64,000 nt of DNA from the NCBI GenBank assembly GCA_963708295.1, contig CAVPSJ010000005.1, forward strand, positions 64,001 through 128,000, read 5' to 3'. Source of the DNA: an uncultured delta proteobacterium (GTDB taxonomy: Bacteria; Desulfobacterota; BSN033; UBA1163). A model generated the notes under the pieces. It did no database searches, was not told where the DNA came from, and was given only the letters and a program-made list of their open reading frames with translations. Shown here piece after piece: positions 34,677 through 43,711 of the stretch. Position numbers and translations under genes: made by a program. How positions within the stretch are numbered: the stretch's first letter is position 1; each line of letters opens with the position of its first letter.

Positions 34677-34679
34677 AAA

Positions 34680-34708
34680 CGCATAGGGCATAGCGCGTAG
34701 CGCAAGGG
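34680..34708 (+). repeat. Left arm of the heptamer inverted repeat bracketing 34.7-38.3 kb
   Basis: CGCATAG GGCATAG CGCGTAG CGCAAGG, starting 4 nt after the dctM stop. Confidence 0.8.
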
Positions 34709-34914
34709 GGATTGACCACCCATGAGGAAAAGTAAGAGCCACCTCTATATAGAACTAATGATCAGGCTATTGGCTTCTTCCTGAAATGTTGATTGTTCAT
34801 TTTAGTTCCATAATACAAGATTTCAAACGGCAATTGGTAATGTGCTAATAACATTCCTTTCTTCCCAAGTTATTTTACCCCAAAAGACTCCCCACAAAAC
34901 TCCCAAAACACTCC

Positions 34915-34966
34915 TTGACAACTTAATAATAATGAAGTATCTTGCATGAGATTGATTTCATGAAAT
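34915..34966 (+). promoter_or_regulatory. Sigma70 promoter with a downstream palindromic operator candidate
   Basis: TTGACA-17 bp-TATCTT, followed by the perfect palindrome ATTTCATGAAAT at 34955-34966. Confidence 0.7.
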
Positions 34967-35017
34967 AAAGTTTACTAGTGCATGCTGCAAACCTCATAAG
35001 GGAGAAAGGAGTTGATT

Positions 35018-35361
35018 GTGAAACATCTATCTAAATTACTTCGTATTTCACTCTTGATTGCTCTATTGGCTTTGCCAATAACCGCTTGTATGGAAGGTTC
35101 GATGTTCTAATTTTGACGGTTGAGACACCTCAGGATAAGGCGACTGTTAGTACGCCTACGGTCACGGTAAGTGGCACAGTCACTAAGACGGCTGAGGTGA
35201 AGATTAATGACGTGGTAGTGCCGTCTAAAGGTAGCAAGTTCTCCACCGATATCAAGTTGACCGAAGGCAGCAATGTCATTAATGTTGTCGCTAAATCGGG
35301 TAAGGACACGGAAACGAAGACACTGACTATTACCTACAATCCAAGTAAGCAGTCTGGCTAA
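35018..35361 (+). CDS. Small lipoprotein with an Ig-like domain, frameshifted near 35098
   Basis: AGGAG then GTG; MKHLSKLLRISLLIALLALPITA-C-MEG; another frame continues DVLILTVETPQD...VTVSG...LTEGSNVINVVA. Confidence 0.7.
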
Positions 35362-35510
35362 GAACAGGAATCAAATTCCGAAACTGGGAGTAATTGACGG
35401 AGGAGAAGACTTAAAATTGCCTACAATAAATTTGTTTACTTAGATTATTAGGCACTACAGGGTCCAGAGATATATAAATATTTCTGGAGGTTAAAAACCT
35501 TGATAGTCGG

Positions 35511-35545
35511 GCCGCTATCTGAACGTGGAGGATAGCGGCTTTTTT
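35511..35545 (+). terminator. Intrinsic terminator
   Basis: GCCGCTATC-loop-GATAGCGGC followed by TTTTTT. Confidence 0.8.
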
Positions 35546-35604
35546 ATGCAATGAACTAGAGCGGTCTTTCAAAACTTCGATTCAGAATTAAGGGAGGAAT
35601 CAAC

Positions 35605-35931
35605 ATGGCAACATGGACATTTCTTACGAATCATGCAATTGTACTTTTCTTTCTGGCAAAACATCCATTAATCACTGGACGAGAGTTGTCAGGATTAATA
35701 GGGATTACGGAAAGGTCAGTAAGAAATATTATTTCTGATCTCGAATCAGAGGGGTATATCCAAAAGTCCAAAGAGGGAAGGCAAGTAAGGTATAAAACCA
35801 ATCCGCATTTACCTCTTCGGCACCACACTCAGAAGGATAAGGCAATAAGAATTCTCCTCGAAGCATTAGACTGCGAACAAATACGAAAAGGAGCCAAGAA
35901 ACGGGAAGCATCGTCGAAGGCAGTTCTATAA
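35605..35931 (+). CDS. Winged-helix transcriptional regulator (WTFLTNH type)
   Basis: WTFLTNHA, GITERSVRNIISDLESEGYI, LPLRH; strong GGAGG RBS. Confidence 0.85.
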   Translation: MATWTFLTNHAIVLFFLAKHPLITGRELSGLIGITERSVRNIISDLESEGYIQKSKEGRQVRYKTNPHLPLRHHTQKDKAIRILLEALDCEQIRKGAKKREASSKAVL

Positions 35932-36160
35932 AAAAAGGGACTCCAACTTTCTGTGTCTCCTGTTTCATCGCCTCCGTCGATGTATTCAGGTCAAGTAACG
36001 ATCTACCCCCTTGTTTCAATATTTCAAACGATAATCTTCATTACTCAGTATGAGCCACCATTGCGGCTTTGTAGGTGCTATACGTAACATAATCTGCTTT
36101 TTCTTGTGATATTAGTTAGTTAAGGGCTGTTTTCCATTATCACTTTTTTCTCTATCCCTG

Positions 36161-37096
36161 TCAAGATAATTCGTTTTCAGCGCCTCCGAGTAACTCCATG
36201 CTCTCCTGTTCGTCGTCATCCTCTTGTTGCGCCTGCGTTCTTTGCAGAACCACCTGCATGGCCTTGTAGTAGTCTCGTTGGACCTTGAGGTTGGCTACGC
36301 GGCAGTAGCGCTGCGTGGTGGTAATCTGGCCATGCCCCAGGAGGTCCTGGATAGTCGCAAGGTCAGCATCGGCATTAAGAAGCTGTGTGGCCATGGTGTG
36401 GCGAAGACGATGACATGAGACGTTGAGTCCACTTTGTCGCCCATAGTATTCGATCCTCTTCTGAATGCCTCGGACCGATATCGGTTTGCCTCTCATCGGT
36501 CCCTTCTGCACCAGAAACAATCCTCTGGCTTTCGAGGATCGTTTCGCCAGATACACCGAAAGAGCGGATTGGGCATCTTCACTCATGTAGACGACCCGAT
36601 CCTTAGCCCCTTTTCCATGGAAGACAAAGATCTGTCTTCTCCCGTACTCTACCGCATCAACCGTCAGCTCAGCCACCTCCTGGACCCGAAGGCCGCAGCG
36701 GAGCATCAACATGAACATGGCCCGGTCTCTCAGATCCGTGATGCCATCAAAGAGGCCCCTGACCTGGTCATCCTTCAGGTGCCGGGGCAGTGGCTTGGGC
36801 AGACGGAGCGAGATCCGGGTGACAGGGTTGATGATCGATCTGCCTTCCTCATTTGTGAGATAGTCGAAGAACAGACGGATCGTTTGCAGGTAGCACGTGA
36901 TCGTCTTGGGTGTTCGTCGCTTTCGGAGGAGATGATCGACATAGGCTCCGATCTCTGTACGAGTCACATCAGGGAGAGGCACGGTAAGCCATCTGATGAA
37001 CTGATCGAGGATGTTGACATAGCTTTTGACCGTGTGGGCTGAGTAGTTTTTTCTCTTCAAGGCTCTCCGGTACCCGATCAGCTCAGTAGGTTCCAT
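36161..37096 (-). CDS. Tyrosine recombinase (XerC/D-like), downstream gene of the pair
   Basis: Core-binding N-domain (YSAHTVKSY) and complete catalytic set: CGLRVQE, GKGAKDR, HRLRH, LLGH, TTQRY. Confidence 0.95.
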   Translation of the reverse strand: MEPTELIGYRRALKRKNYSAHTVKSYVNILDQFIRWLTVPLPDVTRTEIGAYVDHLLRKRRTPKTITCYLQTIRLFFDYLTNEEGRSIINPVTRISLRLPKPLPRHLKDDQVRGLFDGITDLRDRAMFMLMLRCGLRVQEVAELTVDAVEYGRRQIFVFHGKGAKDRVVYMSEDAQSALSVYLAKRSSKARGLFLVQKGPMRGKPISVRGIQKRIEYYGRQSGLNVSCHRLRHTMATQLLNADADLATIQDLLGHGQITTTQRYCRVANLKVQRDYYKAMQVVLQRTQAQQEDDDEQESMELLGGAENELS

Positions 37097-38096
37097 CGAT
37101 CCCTCCTTTCTCGATAATGGCCATGGCCCGGAAGTACTCTTGTTCGCGGGTGGTGTCAGTGAGCCGGGCGTATCGGCGGGTTACCTCGATGTCCTGGTGA
37201 CCCAGTAACTGCTGGAGACATTCCAGGCGCATCCCCGCGTTGAGAAGCTCGGAGGCAAACGTGTGACGCAGACAATGGACCGTGTAGCCCTTCTGATTGA
37301 GGCCTGCTTTGTTGAGATATTTTACGAAAAGGCCTCTGCCGGTACTGTAACAGAGATGCCCATTGCTCTGGCCGTAAAAGACGAATTCCTTGTTCTTGTC
37401 CCTTCGCCTCAGCCAAAGCTTGATGGCAAACAGCGCATCATCACTCAGATACACCACCCTCCCCATGCTGTTCTTCTCTCCCTCGTACAGGTCAACCTTT
37501 CTACCTTTGATGTCCAGATCGTTTAACCTCAGTCCCAAGGCCTCGCCGATTCGTATCCCTGTCCGTAAAAGGAGAAGAAATAGGGCCCGGTCCCGGATGT
37601 CGTCCATCACACCCAGAAGTTTTCTCACATCGGAGGGGTTCATGGCCCGAGGTAGGGTCTCTGGCAGCTTCAGCTTGATGCCCCGCTTAAGAACGGACCC
37701 AGGGATGATATCTTGCTCCATCAGAAAATGCACAAATGCAATGATGCAAGCCACCCTCGTCCGCACCGTGGAGATTCGTAATCCCCGATCCTGCTCCTGC
37801 TCGATGAAGCCTTCCAGGTCCCTCCGTTCGAGTTTCTCGATTTCTCTCTTGCCTAACTTCCCATAAAAGTCCAGGAAGAGCCTGACGGACGTAAAAGAAC
37901 TGGCGAGGGTCTTCGGCTTGTGATTCAGGCGCCGCTTGTGGCGCATGTAGCACTCGAACTGTTCCTTGGCGGGAATCTCCAGGCAAGAGAGCTTCTGGAG
38001 GATGCGGTCGATTGGGGTGAGTGAAAGAAGCTGTTCACATACTACTTCATTTCCACTTTTGACGGACTCATTGGTGATCGGCTGTCCCTGGGTCAT
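37083..38096 (-). CDS. Tyrosine recombinase (XerC/D-like), upstream gene of the pair
   Basis: TGIRIGE, EKN, HCLRH, LLGH, TRRY; RBS AGGAGGAGG; 14-bp overlap with the downstream recombinase. Confidence 0.95.
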   Translation of the reverse strand: MTQGQPITNESVKSGNEVVCEQLLSLTPIDRILQKLSCLEIPAKEQFECYMRHKRRLNHKPKTLASSFTSVRLFLDFYGKLGKREIEKLERRDLEGFIEQEQDRGLRISTVRTRVACIIAFVHFLMEQDIIPGSVLKRGIKLKLPETLPRAMNPSDVRKLLGVMDDIRDRALFLLLLRTGIRIGEALGLRLNDLDIKGRKVDLYEGEKNSMGRVVYLSDDALFAIKLWLRRRDKNKEFVFYGQSNGHLCYSTGRGLFVKYLNKAGLNQKGYTVHCLRHTFASELLNAGMRLECLQQLLGHQDIEVTRRYARLTDTTREQEYFRAMAIIEKGGIDGTY

Positions 38097-38136
38097 TTCT
38101 CCTCCTCCTTTTCTTTTTCAAGAAAAAGCAGAATAG

Positions 38137-38166
38137 ATCATGACCCTTAGCCGTTCTAACGGTCAA
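38137..38166 (-). promoter_or_regulatory. Candidate sigma70 promoter for the recombinase pair
   Basis: TTGACC-18 bp-CATGAT, between the right TIR and the subterminal repeat. Confidence 0.5.
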
Positions 38167-38240
38167 TCCATTTTGTTACGTATAGGTAGGTGAAGTCAAC
38201 GGTTTTTGCCTGATGCTTCTGCCAGCTAATGTTCTTATTC

Positions 38241-38273
38241 CTACGCTATGCGCTATGCCCTCTGCCCTATGCG
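38241..38273 (-). repeat. Right arm of the heptamer inverted repeat bracketing 34.7-38.3 kb
   Basis: The reverse complement CGCATAG GGCAGAG GGCATAG CGCATAG starts immediately after the hydrolase stop. Confidence 0.8.
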
Positions 38274-39200
38274 TTATTCACTTAGGAAGTCAAGGATAGC
38301 CCGATTGACTTCCTCCGGGGTTTCCCACATGGGGATGTGGCCGCTTTTCTCGATCTTCCGAAATTTCGAACCCGCGATGGCCCGATGGAGGTTCTCTCCC
38401 AATGGGGAAGGAAAGACGAGGTCCCTTTCTCCCCAGAGGAATAAGGTAGGCTTGCAAATAGCGGAGAACCGATCCTTGAGCTTCAAGGCCTCCTTGGCAT
38501 GTTTGAAGGTGGAGTAGAGAGCCCAGGTCGTCCCTTTGATCCTGGAAAGTTGATACTGCCGGTTCACGACTTCCGGAGTGACAAGTTTGATATCCGAGAT
38601 ACATTCCAGAAGGATCTGCCTGATCGAATTCTCGTTCCGGACTGCCATGACCAGATAAGGGAGGAATGGAATATTTTTGATCGCCGCCAACATTCGGAAG
38701 GATTCATTTTTGACCTCGTGGAGAATATCCGGAGGAACACAATCAATCAATATGAGCCGATCGACCCGTTCGGGAAAGAGGATCGCCATAGCCCAGGCAA
38801 CCCCTCCGCCCATCGAATTTCCGATCAGCGTCGCCTTCTCAATCCCCGCCCTGTCCATGAAATCCTTTAAACAATCGATGTAGGTCTCCGGGGTGTAAGG
38901 AATCTTGGGCCGGTCTGAGAAACCGTGACCGATCAGATCGAGGGCATAAACCCTATAGCCTTGCGAAAGGACTTCGATCTGCCTTTCCCAAACCCAGATC
39001 GCGGCGCCATAGCCATGAATCAACACGAGAGGGCGGCCTACTCCTTTCACAACATAAAAAATCGTATGGCCATTGATCTGAATCGTCTGCGGAGAGAGTG
39101 AAGGGTTCCAGTCGAACCGGGTGGGCCTGACCAGAGGAATGCTTCGTTCTCTTAAGAAAGGGGTCAATAAGACTGAGAGAATCCATAGAGGGTGAGACAT
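38274..39200 (-). CDS. Alpha/beta fold hydrolase
   Basis: Motifs LVLIHGYG, DLIGHGFS, GNSMGG, LWGERD and SGHIP. Confidence 0.92.
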   Translation of the reverse strand: MSHPLWILSVLLTPFLRERSIPLVRPTRFDWNPSLSPQTIQINGHTIFYVVKGVGRPLVLIHGYGAAIWVWERQIEVLSQGYRVYALDLIGHGFSDRPKIPYTPETYIDCLKDFMDRAGIEKATLIGNSMGGGVAWAMAILFPERVDRLILIDCVPPDILHEVKNESFRMLAAIKNIPFLPYLVMAVRNENSIRQILLECISDIKLVTPEVVNRQYQLSRIKGTTWALYSTFKHAKEALKLKDRFSAICKPTLFLWGERDLVFPSPLGENLHRAIAGSKFRKIEKSGHIPMWETPEEVNRAILDFLSE

Positions 39201-39310
39201 AGAATCTCACTTCTTTGTGAATCACTCCGATAAATATAAATTCCAATCACCAATTACTGAAAGAAGAATTATTGAGGAGTCGAAAATTGCGAAGACATAT
39301 TGTCATAAAA

Positions 39311-39420
39311 TCTCCCCTCACCCCTCTTTACCAAAGAGGGAGAATTCCTCCCTTTTGCAAAGCCTGCCTGCCGGTAGGCAGGGGAGGGAAGTTCCATTAC
39401 TCCAGTACTCCAGTATTCCG
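39311..39420. repeat. Nested REP-like hairpins plus an octamer tandem repeat
   Basis: CCCCTCACCCCTCTTT...AAAGAGGG, CCTGCCTGCCGGTAGGCAGG and CCATTACT CCAGTACT CCAGTATT. Confidence 0.65.
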
Positions 39421-41245: not shown

Positions 41246-41270
41246 GTCAAATTCGGATTTCAGGATGTTT

Positions 41271-41319
41271 CCTCTCACTCTCCCCCTCTCCCCGCCGGGG
41301 AGAGGGTGGGGGTGAGGGG
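41271..41319. repeat. REP-like palindrome
   Basis: CCTCTCACTCTCCCCCTCTCCCCGCCGGGGAGAGGGTGGGGGTGAGGGG. Related copies at about 15705-15753, 56615-56734 and 57611-57891. Confidence 0.85.
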
Positions 41320-42461
41320 TTATGGTTTTACAATCAACGAGACTTCCTTCGACTTCTTCTCTTTGGCTTCCGTCAAAAGGCTGACGATCGACTTCACCAC
41401 CAACTGATAGAGGAAGGGGTTGGGCCGTAGCGGATGGAGAGGTTTCTCCAGATCAATGGCCACGGACAAGGAAATCTTCGCCTCTTCTTCTCTTCCCAGT
41501 TTGAAAAGAACGTAGGCCGTCTCTTCCAACCTTCGCCGATAAAGAAGCTTCCGCTCTCCGGAGAAGAGTTCGGACAAGGCCTTCTGATAGATCCCTTGAA
41601 ACCGCACCTCTTTCTGGGCCGGGTTGAGGACAATCTTCGACTCCTCGGCCTCCGAGATTTCATCCGCAAAAGGCCGGATGCCCTCCTCCTCAATCCTCCA
41701 GCTGGAAAGGAGATCTACTTTAAGAAGGTCCCCTCCTTTTGCCAAAAGACGATCGTCTCCGGCGATGTCTGCCGCTTGAAGATAGGAATAGATCAACGGC
41801 TGGTTATAGTCTTTTCTGACCCTTTCTATTTCCCCTTTCGCCTGGACATAGCCCTGAGGCACGACCCCTTTCCTTGCAAGATTTAATTCATAAGCCCGTG
41901 CGAAGAGGCCGGCCACATAGGAAGGCTCGACTGGAACGATTGGAAACGGGCCTTTTTCTTCAACGCTTTTATAGAAACTCTTGAACTCCTTCCGCGTCAT
42001 CTCCCCATGGGAGAAATCGACGATCCCCAGCTGATCGCTCACGATTCCGTAGGTGACCGTCAGACCCCGGCCCGGATGAGGGATGACAAGCCAGAGAATC
42101 CGGTGGCCGAGAAAATCAATTCCACTCGCGTACCCTTCCCCGGTCTCTTCCCGCACGGGACGAAGGACAGGGGGCTCTTTGCCGGATGAAACCTCCTCAA
42201 CCACAATCCCCTTGCTCTTCAGCCGGTAAAGAGATCGCTTGATCATTTTTCGGACCTTCTTATCCGGGATCGCTTCGGACATCCGGTGGAGAATCTTGAC
42301 CGTCAACGGGTCGGAAGGGTGACCAAAGACTCAGCCAGCTGACCGCCGGTTTGGGGGTCTTTTTCTAACCACGGGAGAAGATATTGAAATATCTCCTCAT
42401 CGGTTTTCCCGCCTGCCATGTCCGTCTTTATTCGGTCCATCAGGGTTTCAATATGATCCAT
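41320..42461 (-). CDS. Hypothetical helical protein, frameshifted near 42310
   Basis: The upstream frame from ATG 42461 (MDHIETLMDRIKTD...) joins the 328-aa ORF containing DKKVRKMIKRSLYRLKSKGI. Confidence 0.65.
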
Positions 42462-42525: not shown

Positions 42526-42775
42526 GAGACTGTATCATCATTAGCGAAAAAACACTCCTCTTCAAGATGGGATCCGGCTAGGCGGGATCAGGTGACAAGG
42601 CTTTAGAGCGGAAACCTTTTATCGGTCAACTACCGGGCTGCAAGCCCTTGAAACGACACCATTGAGGGAACAAGCTCGATTACCGATCACCCTGGATAAT
42701 CGCATTCTAAAGCCAAGGAGCCTGATTGCCTGTCCCGCCCATATCTCCCCTCCATCATGATGGCGATACAGTCTC
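42526..42775 (+). mobile_element. MITE-like element, 250 bp
   Basis: TIRs GAGACTGTATCATCAT and ATGGCGATACAGTCTC (14/16 match); internal motifs CTTTAGAGCGGAAACCTT and CGCATTCTAAAGC. Confidence 0.75.
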
Positions 42776-43711
42776 TCAGGAGGGAGGCGTTAAAGGGGGG
42801 CTGATGATCGTCTGCTGGATCGTCAAAAGCATGGTCATGGAAAGATTCACAAAAAGAGTATTGCGGGACAGAAGTTCCAGTTTTCTGTGGTCGTGATAAT
42901 TCCCCCCCCAGACCTGAATCAGATTCCACAGGACAAGAAAGCATGGGATCCCCGAGAGGAGCAGCAGCCAGTAGGGACAGTCTTTCCACCACATCATTTT
43001 GATAAAGGAAAACCCGGTCAAGACCGACAGTCCGACGTAAAGATCTCCCATCCTTTCCTTTCCGAACCGTACAACCAGGTTCCTTCTTCCAACGGTGTAA
43101 TCCGCCTCTCGATCGGGGAACTCGTTAATCAAGATCACATTAAAAACGGAAAGACCCACGGGGATGGAGAGCAGTAAGATCTGTGGGCTGAAGAAGCCCG
43201 TGAGGAGAAAAAAGCCCGTGGCAATGGGCAGCCATCCATAACAGAACCCGATCAGAATTTCTCCCAGGCCACGATGAGACCATCGAAAGGGTTTGCTCGA
43301 ATAAAAAAATCCAAAAAAGAGTCCCAGTCCCCCGAGCAGGAGGGTTCGAAGATCGGTCTGGTATCGGAGATAGATATAAGATCCGACGAGAATCGCCGCG
43401 GCCAAGCATCCGTATCCCAGGAATAGCGAAACCCAGGGCGGGAGGACTTCTCCGACCAAGACTCTTGACCCGCCTGAAAAACGGTTAAAGTCCCGATTGA
43501 TTCGATCCCCTTCCAGATCGTTCCAGTCTCCTACATAGTAAGTCATCCACATAATGAGGATGACCGCCGTTGTAGAAAGGACATAAAGTCCCGGAGGGCC
43601 TTTGTATCCCCCCCGCCACGCCAGGATAAATCCTAAAATCAAAGGAAGAATTCCCACGAATAGAAAAGGAACTCGTGAGAGCCTCCATAAGGCAATAAAA
43701 TAGCGTTTCAT
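42776..43711 (-). CDS. UbiA-family prenyltransferase (MenA-like)
   Basis: Asp-rich DWNDLEGD, FSGGSRVL, FYSSKPF..SHRGLGE and NEFPDREAD..GRRNLVVRFG; multiple TM helices. Confidence 0.85.
   Translation of the reverse strand: MKRYFIALWRLSRVPFLFVGILPLILGFILAWRGGYKGPPGLYVLSTTAVILIMWMTYYVGDWNDLEGDRINRDFNRFSGGSRVLVGEVLPPWVSLFLGYGCLAAAILVGSYIYLRYQTDLRTLLLGGLGLFFGFFYSSKPFRWSHRGLGEILIGFCYGWLPIATGFFLLTGFFSPQILLLSIPVGLSVFNVILINEFPDREADYTVGRRNLVVRFGKERMGDLYVGLSVLTGFSFIKMMWWKDCPYWLLLLSGIPCFLVLWNLIQVWGGNYHDHRKLELLSRNTLFVNLSMTMLLTIQQTIISPPLTPPS

Follow-up and report, generated by a model that had tools for sequence, protein, structure and literature searches.

We describe here a 2,108-bp unit at positions 36078-38185 of the window, which is the whole 64,000-nucleotide stretch of DNA analysed, on contig C5 (CAVPSJ010000005.1) of the 20-contig genome (G000) of an uncultured delta proteobacterium. 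Direct reading of the sequence and a repeat finder delimit the unit by 16-bp terminal inverted repeats (TIRs): CTATACGTAACATAAT at the left end (L-end; 36078..36093, plus strand), a proposed core-type binding arm for the recombinases, and ATTTTGTTACGTATAG at the right end (R-end; 38170..38185, plus strand), which also recurs at other copies. The two repeats are complementary at 15 of 16 positions (94%). Directly outside them stands the same 7-bp word, GTAGGTG, on the left at 36071..36077, where it would provide the crossover or overlap region of the L junction, and on the right at 38186..38192, followed by the flank AAGTCAA (38193..38199). A 14-bp subterminal repeat, with TCTGCTTTTTCTTG at 36093..36106 and its inverted partner CAAGAAAAAGCAGA at 38119..38132 (both plus strand), directly follows the TIR on the left and is placed 38 bp further in on the right. 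The original prediction had read this arrangement of ends, cores and subterminal repeats correctly.

Within the 64-kb window, the 12-nt tip of the TIR is matched with at most two mismatches only at the two ends of the unit. Two such matches per window are not rare by themselves, since at least two were found in 16 of 100 shuffles, and the assignment of the ends carries weight because the same ends and the same 7-mer recur at every other copy. In whole-region BLAST comparisons, the first 11-12 nt of the TIR are unchanged in relatives at 63-79% identity.

Two open reading frames (ORFs) on the minus strand, overlapping by 14 nt, together fill the unit. The recA-type tyrosine recombinase gene (37083..38096; P0001, 337 aa) adjoins the R-end and the recB-type gene (36161..37096; P0002, 311 aa) adjoins the L-end; "recA-type" is a working name in this analysis only and has no relation to RecA. 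The proposal of an element the size of an insertion sequence (IS) that carries only two tyrosine recombinases holds. Both proteins match Pfam Phage_integrase (E 4e-36 for P0001 and 9e-37 for P0002), and each has, by Pfam, one N-terminal SAM-like domain and one catalytic domain. Motif searches and alignment to XerA (4a8e) recover the full catalytic set that had been claimed for each gene, namely R182, K208, H274, R277, H300 and Y309 in P0001, and R137, K165, H229, R232, H255 and Y264 in P0002. The P0001 lysine sits in a GEKN hairpin shared by 33 of 38 A-type relatives, lies off the exact XerA/XerD column and is assigned by hairpin position only. Both genes have undisrupted reading frames. Compared with P0002, P0001 is longer by about 45 aa at its N-terminus, and the catalytic domains of the two share 35% identity.

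In a 72-row tree, the A type (38 rows, support 100) and the B type (30 rows, support 93) each occupy one side of a branch, and their subclades run parallel. In every locus holding both, the A-type gene lies by the R-end and the B-type gene by the L-end. The parallel subclades and the fixed gene order therefore indicate that the recombinase pair is old and co-evolving. Close relatives of the pair are found in different phyla, and clustering at 85-90% identity yields more than 120 protein clusters for the P0001 family, many of them on contigs of about 2.1 kb and named only "XerD", "integrase" or similar.

The ends also hold promoter-like sites. A putative outward promoter, TTGACA-17-GATAAT (36136..36164, minus strand; 11/12 consensus positions), begins at the recB stop codon and reads out over the L-end, and TTGAC occupies this alignment column in 13 of 21 L-ends. 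Inside the R-end, between the right-end repeats where a candidate promoter had been predicted, lies a putative inward promoter, TTGACC-18-CATGAT (38166-38137, minus strand; 9/12); it overlaps a TGACC...GGTCA dyad, and 17 of 21 aligned R-ends have TTGA at its column. The TCTGCTTTTTCTTG motif is kept across the 21 aligned L-ends, and CAAGAAAAAGCAGA stands directly upstream of the ribosome-binding site (RBS) and start codon of the first gene. A consensus scan further picks out a third, hybrid promoter-like pair, in which a TTGACT of the flank is followed after 18 nt by a CAAAAT of the TIR tip. Across 21 elements, the family R-end runs in the order tip, TTGA(C/T) (17/21), dyad, TCATnAT, CTGCTTTTTC, AGGAGG and ATG. 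The L-end, read outward, runs TTGAC (13/21), about 17 nt, a GATAAT-like box, TAACTAACTAATATC, AAGAAAAAGCAG and tip. This architecture of TIR, promoter-like boxes, subterminal motif and RBS is conserved across the 21. From the consensus boxes we infer that the R-end promoter may be weak and resident, and that the L-end promoter may be stronger and reach the operon only where the ends are joined.

Copies, core words and joined ends

The expectation that other copies would show the same ends in different surroundings is borne out by three full copies and three remnants in this genome and by four copies in a sister genome. The full copies are those of the window, of contig C8 and of the start of contig C12, which begins 2 nt outside the L-end of its copy. 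The C8 and C12 copies are 94% identical to that of the window and 100% identical to each other over 2,116 bp, with different right flanks. The remnants comprise a right end with the 5' part of the first gene (C17:30886-31556), a more diverged left end with the 3' part of the second gene (C17:393510-393856) and a right end only (C11:217487-217672). In the sister genome G010 (2 contigs), the 2.1-kb unit stands alone four times, each time as GTAGGTG, ends and GTAGGTG; two of these copies are 100% identical, and the outer flanks all differ.

G003 (3 copies of a 63% subfamily) and G019 (3 loci) contain more diverged versions, at 63-79% nucleotide identity, and relatives of the element are present in metagenome-assembled genomes (MAGs) of Thermodesulfobacteriota and Nitrospirota. 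A scan of the collection with the end motif returned many stretches with the family's inner subterminal signature, together with chance matches in unrelated taxa; by their record titles, the MAGs concerned belong to Syntrophales/Smithellaceae/Syntrophaceae, Desulfobacterales and "delta proteobacterium", and to Nitrospirota/Thermodesulfovibrionales and Manganitrophaceae. In an evenly drawn sample of the phylum, with 401 genomes from 254 genera, P0001 is matched at E<=1e-60 in 17 genomes and 12 genera, a patchy spread that resembles that of a mobile element. In a plasmid collection, the best matches were only 29-36% identical and belonged to other kinds of recombinase loci, namely an IS91-linked gene and a pair of 409 and 695 aa (36% identity to P0001 over 58% of its length).

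Complete family units range from 2.04 to 2.24 kb. The expected absence of a consistent third gene stands in that none of 25 complete units has a third recombinase; it fails in one subclade, in which three loci (L039:6378-7568, L051:6597-7799 and L025:697-1896) carry a third gene of about 400 aa, co-oriented with the others and placed between the second recombinase gene and the L-end, with only weak TPR matches. One Nitrospirota copy is interrupted by an IS630-like insertion, and several relatives have solitary ends of 45-100 bp. We also observed a gene-less, near-perfect palindrome of two L-type ends around CACCTGC (L164:1091-1119 and L165:1912-1940) on 5-kb contigs with no recombinase, which may be a solo site or a miniature derivative.

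The 7-bp word behaves as part of this family rather than as a product of each insertion. All five right ends in the genome are followed by GTAGGTG, and their flanks diverge only after it. The same word abuts every end of the lineage whose flank can be read, including both readable left ends and 8 of 8 ends of the four G010 copies. Among complete units with both 7-mers readable (4 further rows, in which an end ran off the stretch, were left out), 22 of 28 have identical pairs, or 19 of 25 after removal of 3 duplicates. These identical pairs comprise seven core words in gene orientation: CACCTAC in 10, GTAGGTG in 3, TTCCTGT in 2, and CAGGGTG, CATGTCG, CTGCTAT and GCGATAA in 1 each. The G003 subfamily carries the same core word in the opposite orientation relative to its genes. 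Taken together, the 7-mer fits a carried crossover core of site-specific recombination better than an arbitrary duplication. The view of the 7 bp as an ordinary target-site duplication is thus contradicted by the presence of the same GTAGGTG at all readable ends of the lineage in two genomes. A conventional transposon or IS that duplicates 7 bp of arbitrary target would likewise display inverted ends and 7-bp direct repeats, and we regard it as very improbable: one 7-mer flanks every copy of the lineage, the right-hand 7-mer belongs to the repeated sequence at 5/5 right ends, and the unit encodes two Phage_integrase proteins and no DDE, HUH or serine enzyme.

Joined ends exist as DNA. An exact 11-7-11 pattern (end, 7 bp, end) occurs in five metagenome stretches. 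In L168, the order of flank, ACAGGAA, L-end to R-end, ACAGGAA and a second L-end makes a head-to-tail junction with a period of 2,157 bp, and in L167 a complete element has a TIR-like end as its neighbour, the 7-mer being the same on either side. Two of the other stretches represent one gene-less palindromic site, and one is an R-end beside an end-like target. Among the 401 phylum genomes the pattern occurs in one, at the site L183, as a true junction of R-end, GTAAATA and L-end with only short gene remnants around it. Head-to-tail junctions (end, 7 bp, end) are found in three contigs. No such pattern was found in viral contigs. No sequencing run, all in the form of Logan contigs, contained more than 0.21 of the sampled words; in the four runs compared with the window, which yielded short and diverged contigs only, no contig joined R-end to L-end or skipped the element. 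Summed contig depth goes up near 36076 and down after about 38240, a measure that mixes organisms and is not copy number.

Target sites and the 77-bp repeat

In 89 distinct ends, the five bases outside the core are G in 51%, A in 62%, C/T in 80%, T in 75% and T in 44%, alike at L- and R-ends, and the target therefore resembles TTGACTT-N7-AAGTCAA. The right flank of the window copy, GTAGGTG-AAGTCAAC, agrees with this consensus in its AAGTCAA, the arm that reads GAYTT on the other strand.

To the right, the C12 and C11 copies run into an interspersed repeat of 77 bp, with GTAGGTG as its exact start and CTTCCTG as its end. This genome contains 19 matches to it (C17:393387-393470, which is L007:1378-1461; C17:2111-48026; and contigs C4, C8, C11, C12, C14 and C19), more than 10 of them co-oriented between gene groups in the C17:2-50 kb region. 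Matches number 1-6 in 8 of 14 other genomes of the genus, and there are none in 11 genomes outside it. Unoccupied copies have a single GTAGGTG preceded by ...CTTT or ...GACTT. In relatives with a CTTCCTG core, the L-ends abut the other end of the same repeat (CATTTAGTACTTCCTG, then the end), so both ends of the repeat serve as landing sites, and the repeat looks like a landing pad for two element lineages. At C17:31542-31625, a copy of the repeat is joined to the inner part of a truncated recombinase gene.

The original prediction had suggested relaxed target choice. We find that target choice is specific, because the sites match the carried 7-mer, have weak GAYTT arms and, in this genome, lie at the ends of the 77-bp repeat. 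An integron was considered and rejected: the IntI models of NCBIfam score 63-112 bits vs cut-offs of 265-435, and the target repeat does not fold. The repeat was likewise rejected as an attC-like hairpin or RNA, with no fold (z +1.2) and no Rfam match.

Mode of movement and the 1.3-kb module

We propose, with a probability of roughly 0.85, that 36078-38185 is an intact member of an IS-sized integrative family whose sole genes are two paralogous Xer-like recombinases and which excises and re-integrates by an Xer-like route. The element is intact and probably recently active. In the first step of the proposed cycle, both enzymes would bind the inverted ends of 11-16 bp; the two direct 7-bp cores, GTAGGTG here, would then be recombined, and the element would leave as a circle. 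The circle junction, R-end, 7 bp and L-end, would form a lox/dif-like 11-7-11 site, from which the circle would re-integrate by strand exchange in a target with the same 7-mer, preferably one flanked by GAYTT. Since the overlap has to match, each lineage would take its own 7-base word along as it moves between sites. In the integrated state, the weak inward promoter at the R-end would drive the two-gene operon, and in the circle transcription from the stronger outward promoter at the L-end would cross the junction and enter it. The circular intermediate, the assignment of each protein to a site and this promoter logic are the parts that we infer.

Several observations weigh against this proposal. 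Six of the 25 units have unlike 7-mers on the two sides. The head-to-tail junctions, none of which comes from this genome, could stem from tandem copies rather than from circles. Repeated insertion into related repeats, or selection for a box of the -35 type, could account for part of the GAYTT arm in place of recognition by protein. For the 2.1-kb unit alone, the search turned up no orthologous empty site: 25 relatives lack counterparts to the flanks of the C8 copy, and the flanks of two of the four G010 copies (L022 and L023, the two tested) are present in the genus and never contiguous in the 13 other genus genomes. The empty sites that we do have are stand-ins only, namely paralogous unoccupied copies of the repeat and the module end without an element in G001 and G009, described below. 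Finally, the window element was duplicated together with a 1.3-kb neighbour, so its last move may not have used the two inverted ends. As for the six unlike pairs, most differ at few positions and, as far as the sequences tell, they match what integration into an imperfect target would leave.

The neighbour is a 1.3-kb module (34775..36070, plus strand) outside the inverted ends. It contains a small Glucodextran_B-like ORF (35086-35361), a match to the nhaA-I riboswitch, a Na+/Li+ riboswitch class (35460-35520; 50.1 bits in Rfam, gathering score 37), and, downstream of the latter, a winged-helix gene (35605-35931). A second copy of the block 34775-38192 (3.4 kb), module and element together, stands on C8 at 95.6% identity, the DNA to either side being unrelated, and the identity of the two copies per 100 bp is similar across the module and recB. 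The whole block lies inside an intergenic hairpin between genes for a DctM permease and an alpha/beta-hydrolase; G011, G015 and G003 lack it at their orthologous dctM/hydrolase site. The empty site reconstructed in the original prediction takes its left flank from this same duplicated module.

The best surviving alternative is that the unit last moved was the 3.4-kb composite 34775-38192, in which the end at 36078 would be an internal site and the module would travel as cargo, either through the element's own recombinases or in some other way. Besides the shared block and its absence from the orthologous site in relatives, this is favoured by the left edge of the module, where TTCTTCCTG meets AAATG, much as CTTCCTG meets AAGTC at the sites of the sister subfamily, and by a second module with the same left edge upstream of the L-end remnant (C17:391548-393512). 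We nevertheless consider it possible rather than likely. The 2.1-kb unit is repeated by itself in the four G010 copies, and C12 opens 2 nt outside an L-end; the module occurs without the element in G009, where it ends in GTAGATA, and in G001, where it ends in GTAGATG; a tip scan of the window found no inverted-end sequence at the module's left edge; and two independent site-specific insertions, each at the GTAGGTG that ends a module copy, would look no different. The data fit a composite history, with insertion of the element at the terminal GTAGGTG of the module and later copying of both together, as well as two insertions at the same site.

A bolder reading, which we hold to be doubtful, is that one recombinase recognises the inverted ends and the other the GAYTT arms, that attL and attR are mixed dif-like sites, and that the landing-pad repeats, with GTAGGTG at one end and CTTCCTG at the other, take part in cassette shuffling. 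Core-bounded modules such as 34775-36077 and the C17:2-50 kb array would then be moved by the element's enzymes in an integron-like manner with Xer-type chemistry.

Two further explanations can be set aside. An invertible switch, in which the recombinases would flip the segment and turn, for example, an outward promoter toward or away from a neighbour, is suggested by recombinase genes between inverted repeats and by the outward promoter-like site at the L-end; it is highly implausible since the asymmetric 7-bp cores are direct rather than inverted, so that recombination would delete and not invert, and since copies lie at many unrelated loci and head-to-tail junctions exist. Equally implausible is a duplicated housekeeping Xer system of the host for chromosome or plasmid dimer resolution, for although the best NCBIfam matches are XerA, XerC and XerD models, these score 152-192 bits vs cut-offs of 220-335 (123-190 vs 330-335 for the curated XerC/XerD equivalog models), the host's own Xer homologues on C11 and C13 (28-33% identity) fall outside the A and B clades, and the genes exist in several copies, are patchily distributed among relatives and have ends of their own.

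Some observations on the surroundings of the element stand by themselves. The start of the module (34775-34829, about 55 bp, TTCTTCCTGAAATGTTGATTG...) recurs by itself at C17:391548 and in many other genomes of the genus; modules of this kind may have it in common as a leader or promoter. The riboswitch region (35460-35547) also recurs in several contigs and relatives. An ORF with a lipoprotein-type signal (35012-35110, ...LPITAC) is out of frame with the Glucodextran_B-like ORF, and 35012-35361 may thus be a frameshifted small lipoprotein gene. In G009 (L038, contig C189, about 2000-2182), the module's GTAGATA is directly followed by the start of an ORF that, from its N-terminal sequence, resembles an IS110-family transposase. 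Inverted GCATAGGGCATAGCG-type sequences at 34677-34705 and 38241-38282 flank the whole 3.5-kb insertion, and the empty DctM/hydrolase site of relatives has a variable hairpin-like spacer. Three other short families, represented in the window at 39266-39391, 41264-41326 and 42526-42787, are multi-copy across the genome's contigs.

Comparison with known systems

Every IS-sized element known to us depends on a DDE, HUH or serine enzyme. The transposons known to use tyrosine recombinases, namely TnPZ, Tn554, RIT, SE and GInt, are larger or more complex. A recombinase pair with two lox/dif-like half sites in 2 kb would therefore be a minimal tyrosine-recombinase transposon, and an abundant one, judging by the more than 120 protein clusters. 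Should the 7-base overlap be the main address, swapping the carried word ought to re-target the element, which would make it a compact, testable model for programmable site-specific integration. Such elements would also help to explain how short genomic repeats become insertion hot spots, and would bear on the annotation of the family's genes, now labelled XerC/XerD or "integrase".

In IS911, IS30 and similar elements, which use DDE transposases, the circle junction places a strong promoter upstream of the mobility genes. The present element may share this logic, as its consensus boxes suggest.

The family is apparently an undescribed one. A literature search, as far as the available portions of the papers cited here extend, found no description of two tyrosine recombinases between inverted ends, with the limit that "Xer" subgroups in the supplements of PMC3414803 and PMC8138268 could list such pairs. 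The idea of a poorly described class is thereby upheld, the family being annotated only as "XerD/integrase" and no describing paper having been found. One of these sources divides tyrosine-recombinase transposons into five groups, ICE/IME, SE, GInt, RIT and Tn554, with no two-gene group among them in the portion available (PMC10214605). The same limit on the sources applies to the comparisons that follow. We rejected BIM as a relative, since it combines one recombinase with an unrelated protein rather than two recombinases (PMC3414803).

The pair resembles XerC/XerD at dif in being a heteromeric set of simple Xer proteins and in having two inverted arms around a short central region; XerC and XerD are host genes with one chromosomal site, which IMEX borrow, whereas here the pair is borne by the element and many sites are used (PMC5357621).

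RIT elements carry ritA, ritB and ritC in about 3.5 kb, RitA having two CB domains and RitC an extra C-terminal helix (PMC3414803, PMC8138268). Like them, the present family is compact, has only adjacent tyrosine-recombinase genes between inverted repeats, and owes the inference of mobility to its copies. Unlike RIT, which we compared by description, it has two genes (311-337 aa).

With Tn554, and with the actinobacterial two-recombinase tandems, the element shares two tyrosine recombinases that work together and site-specific insertion. We know of no inverted ends in Tn554. Unlike Tn554, the unit has no ORF between its ends beyond the two that encode 337 and 311 aa. Elements of the Tn554 type require TnpA, a long TnpB (one recombinase is >600 aa) and TnpC (PMC3414803, PMC10214605).

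SE elements need four genes (intA, tfp, intB and srap), are at least 6.3 kb long and have been found in Gammaproteobacteria only, and SE and GInt are defined by four core genes that include a non-catalytic recombinase-like protein and an accessory protein (PMC10214605). The likeness to SE lies in two catalytic tyrosine recombinases in an operon at one end, imperfect inverted repeats (13-19 bp in SE), a circular form, here a proposed one, and selected targets. In contrast to SE, which carries 6 bases from one side only, this element has two genes only.

The closest known mechanism is that of TnPZ/XerT. The XerT of Helicobacter TnPZ, or ICEHptfs, uses many sites that share the 7-bp word AAGAATG, which is found as direct repeats at both element ends and once at empty sites (PMC2731543). 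As in TnPZ, we find a Xer-like tyrosine recombinase, short TIRs and one 7-bp word at both ends. TnPZ is large and conjugative, with type IV secretion genes and one recombinase, whereas the present element has 2.1 kb, two recombinases and no transfer genes. Moreover, and unlike TnPZ, different lineages of this family carry different 7-mers.

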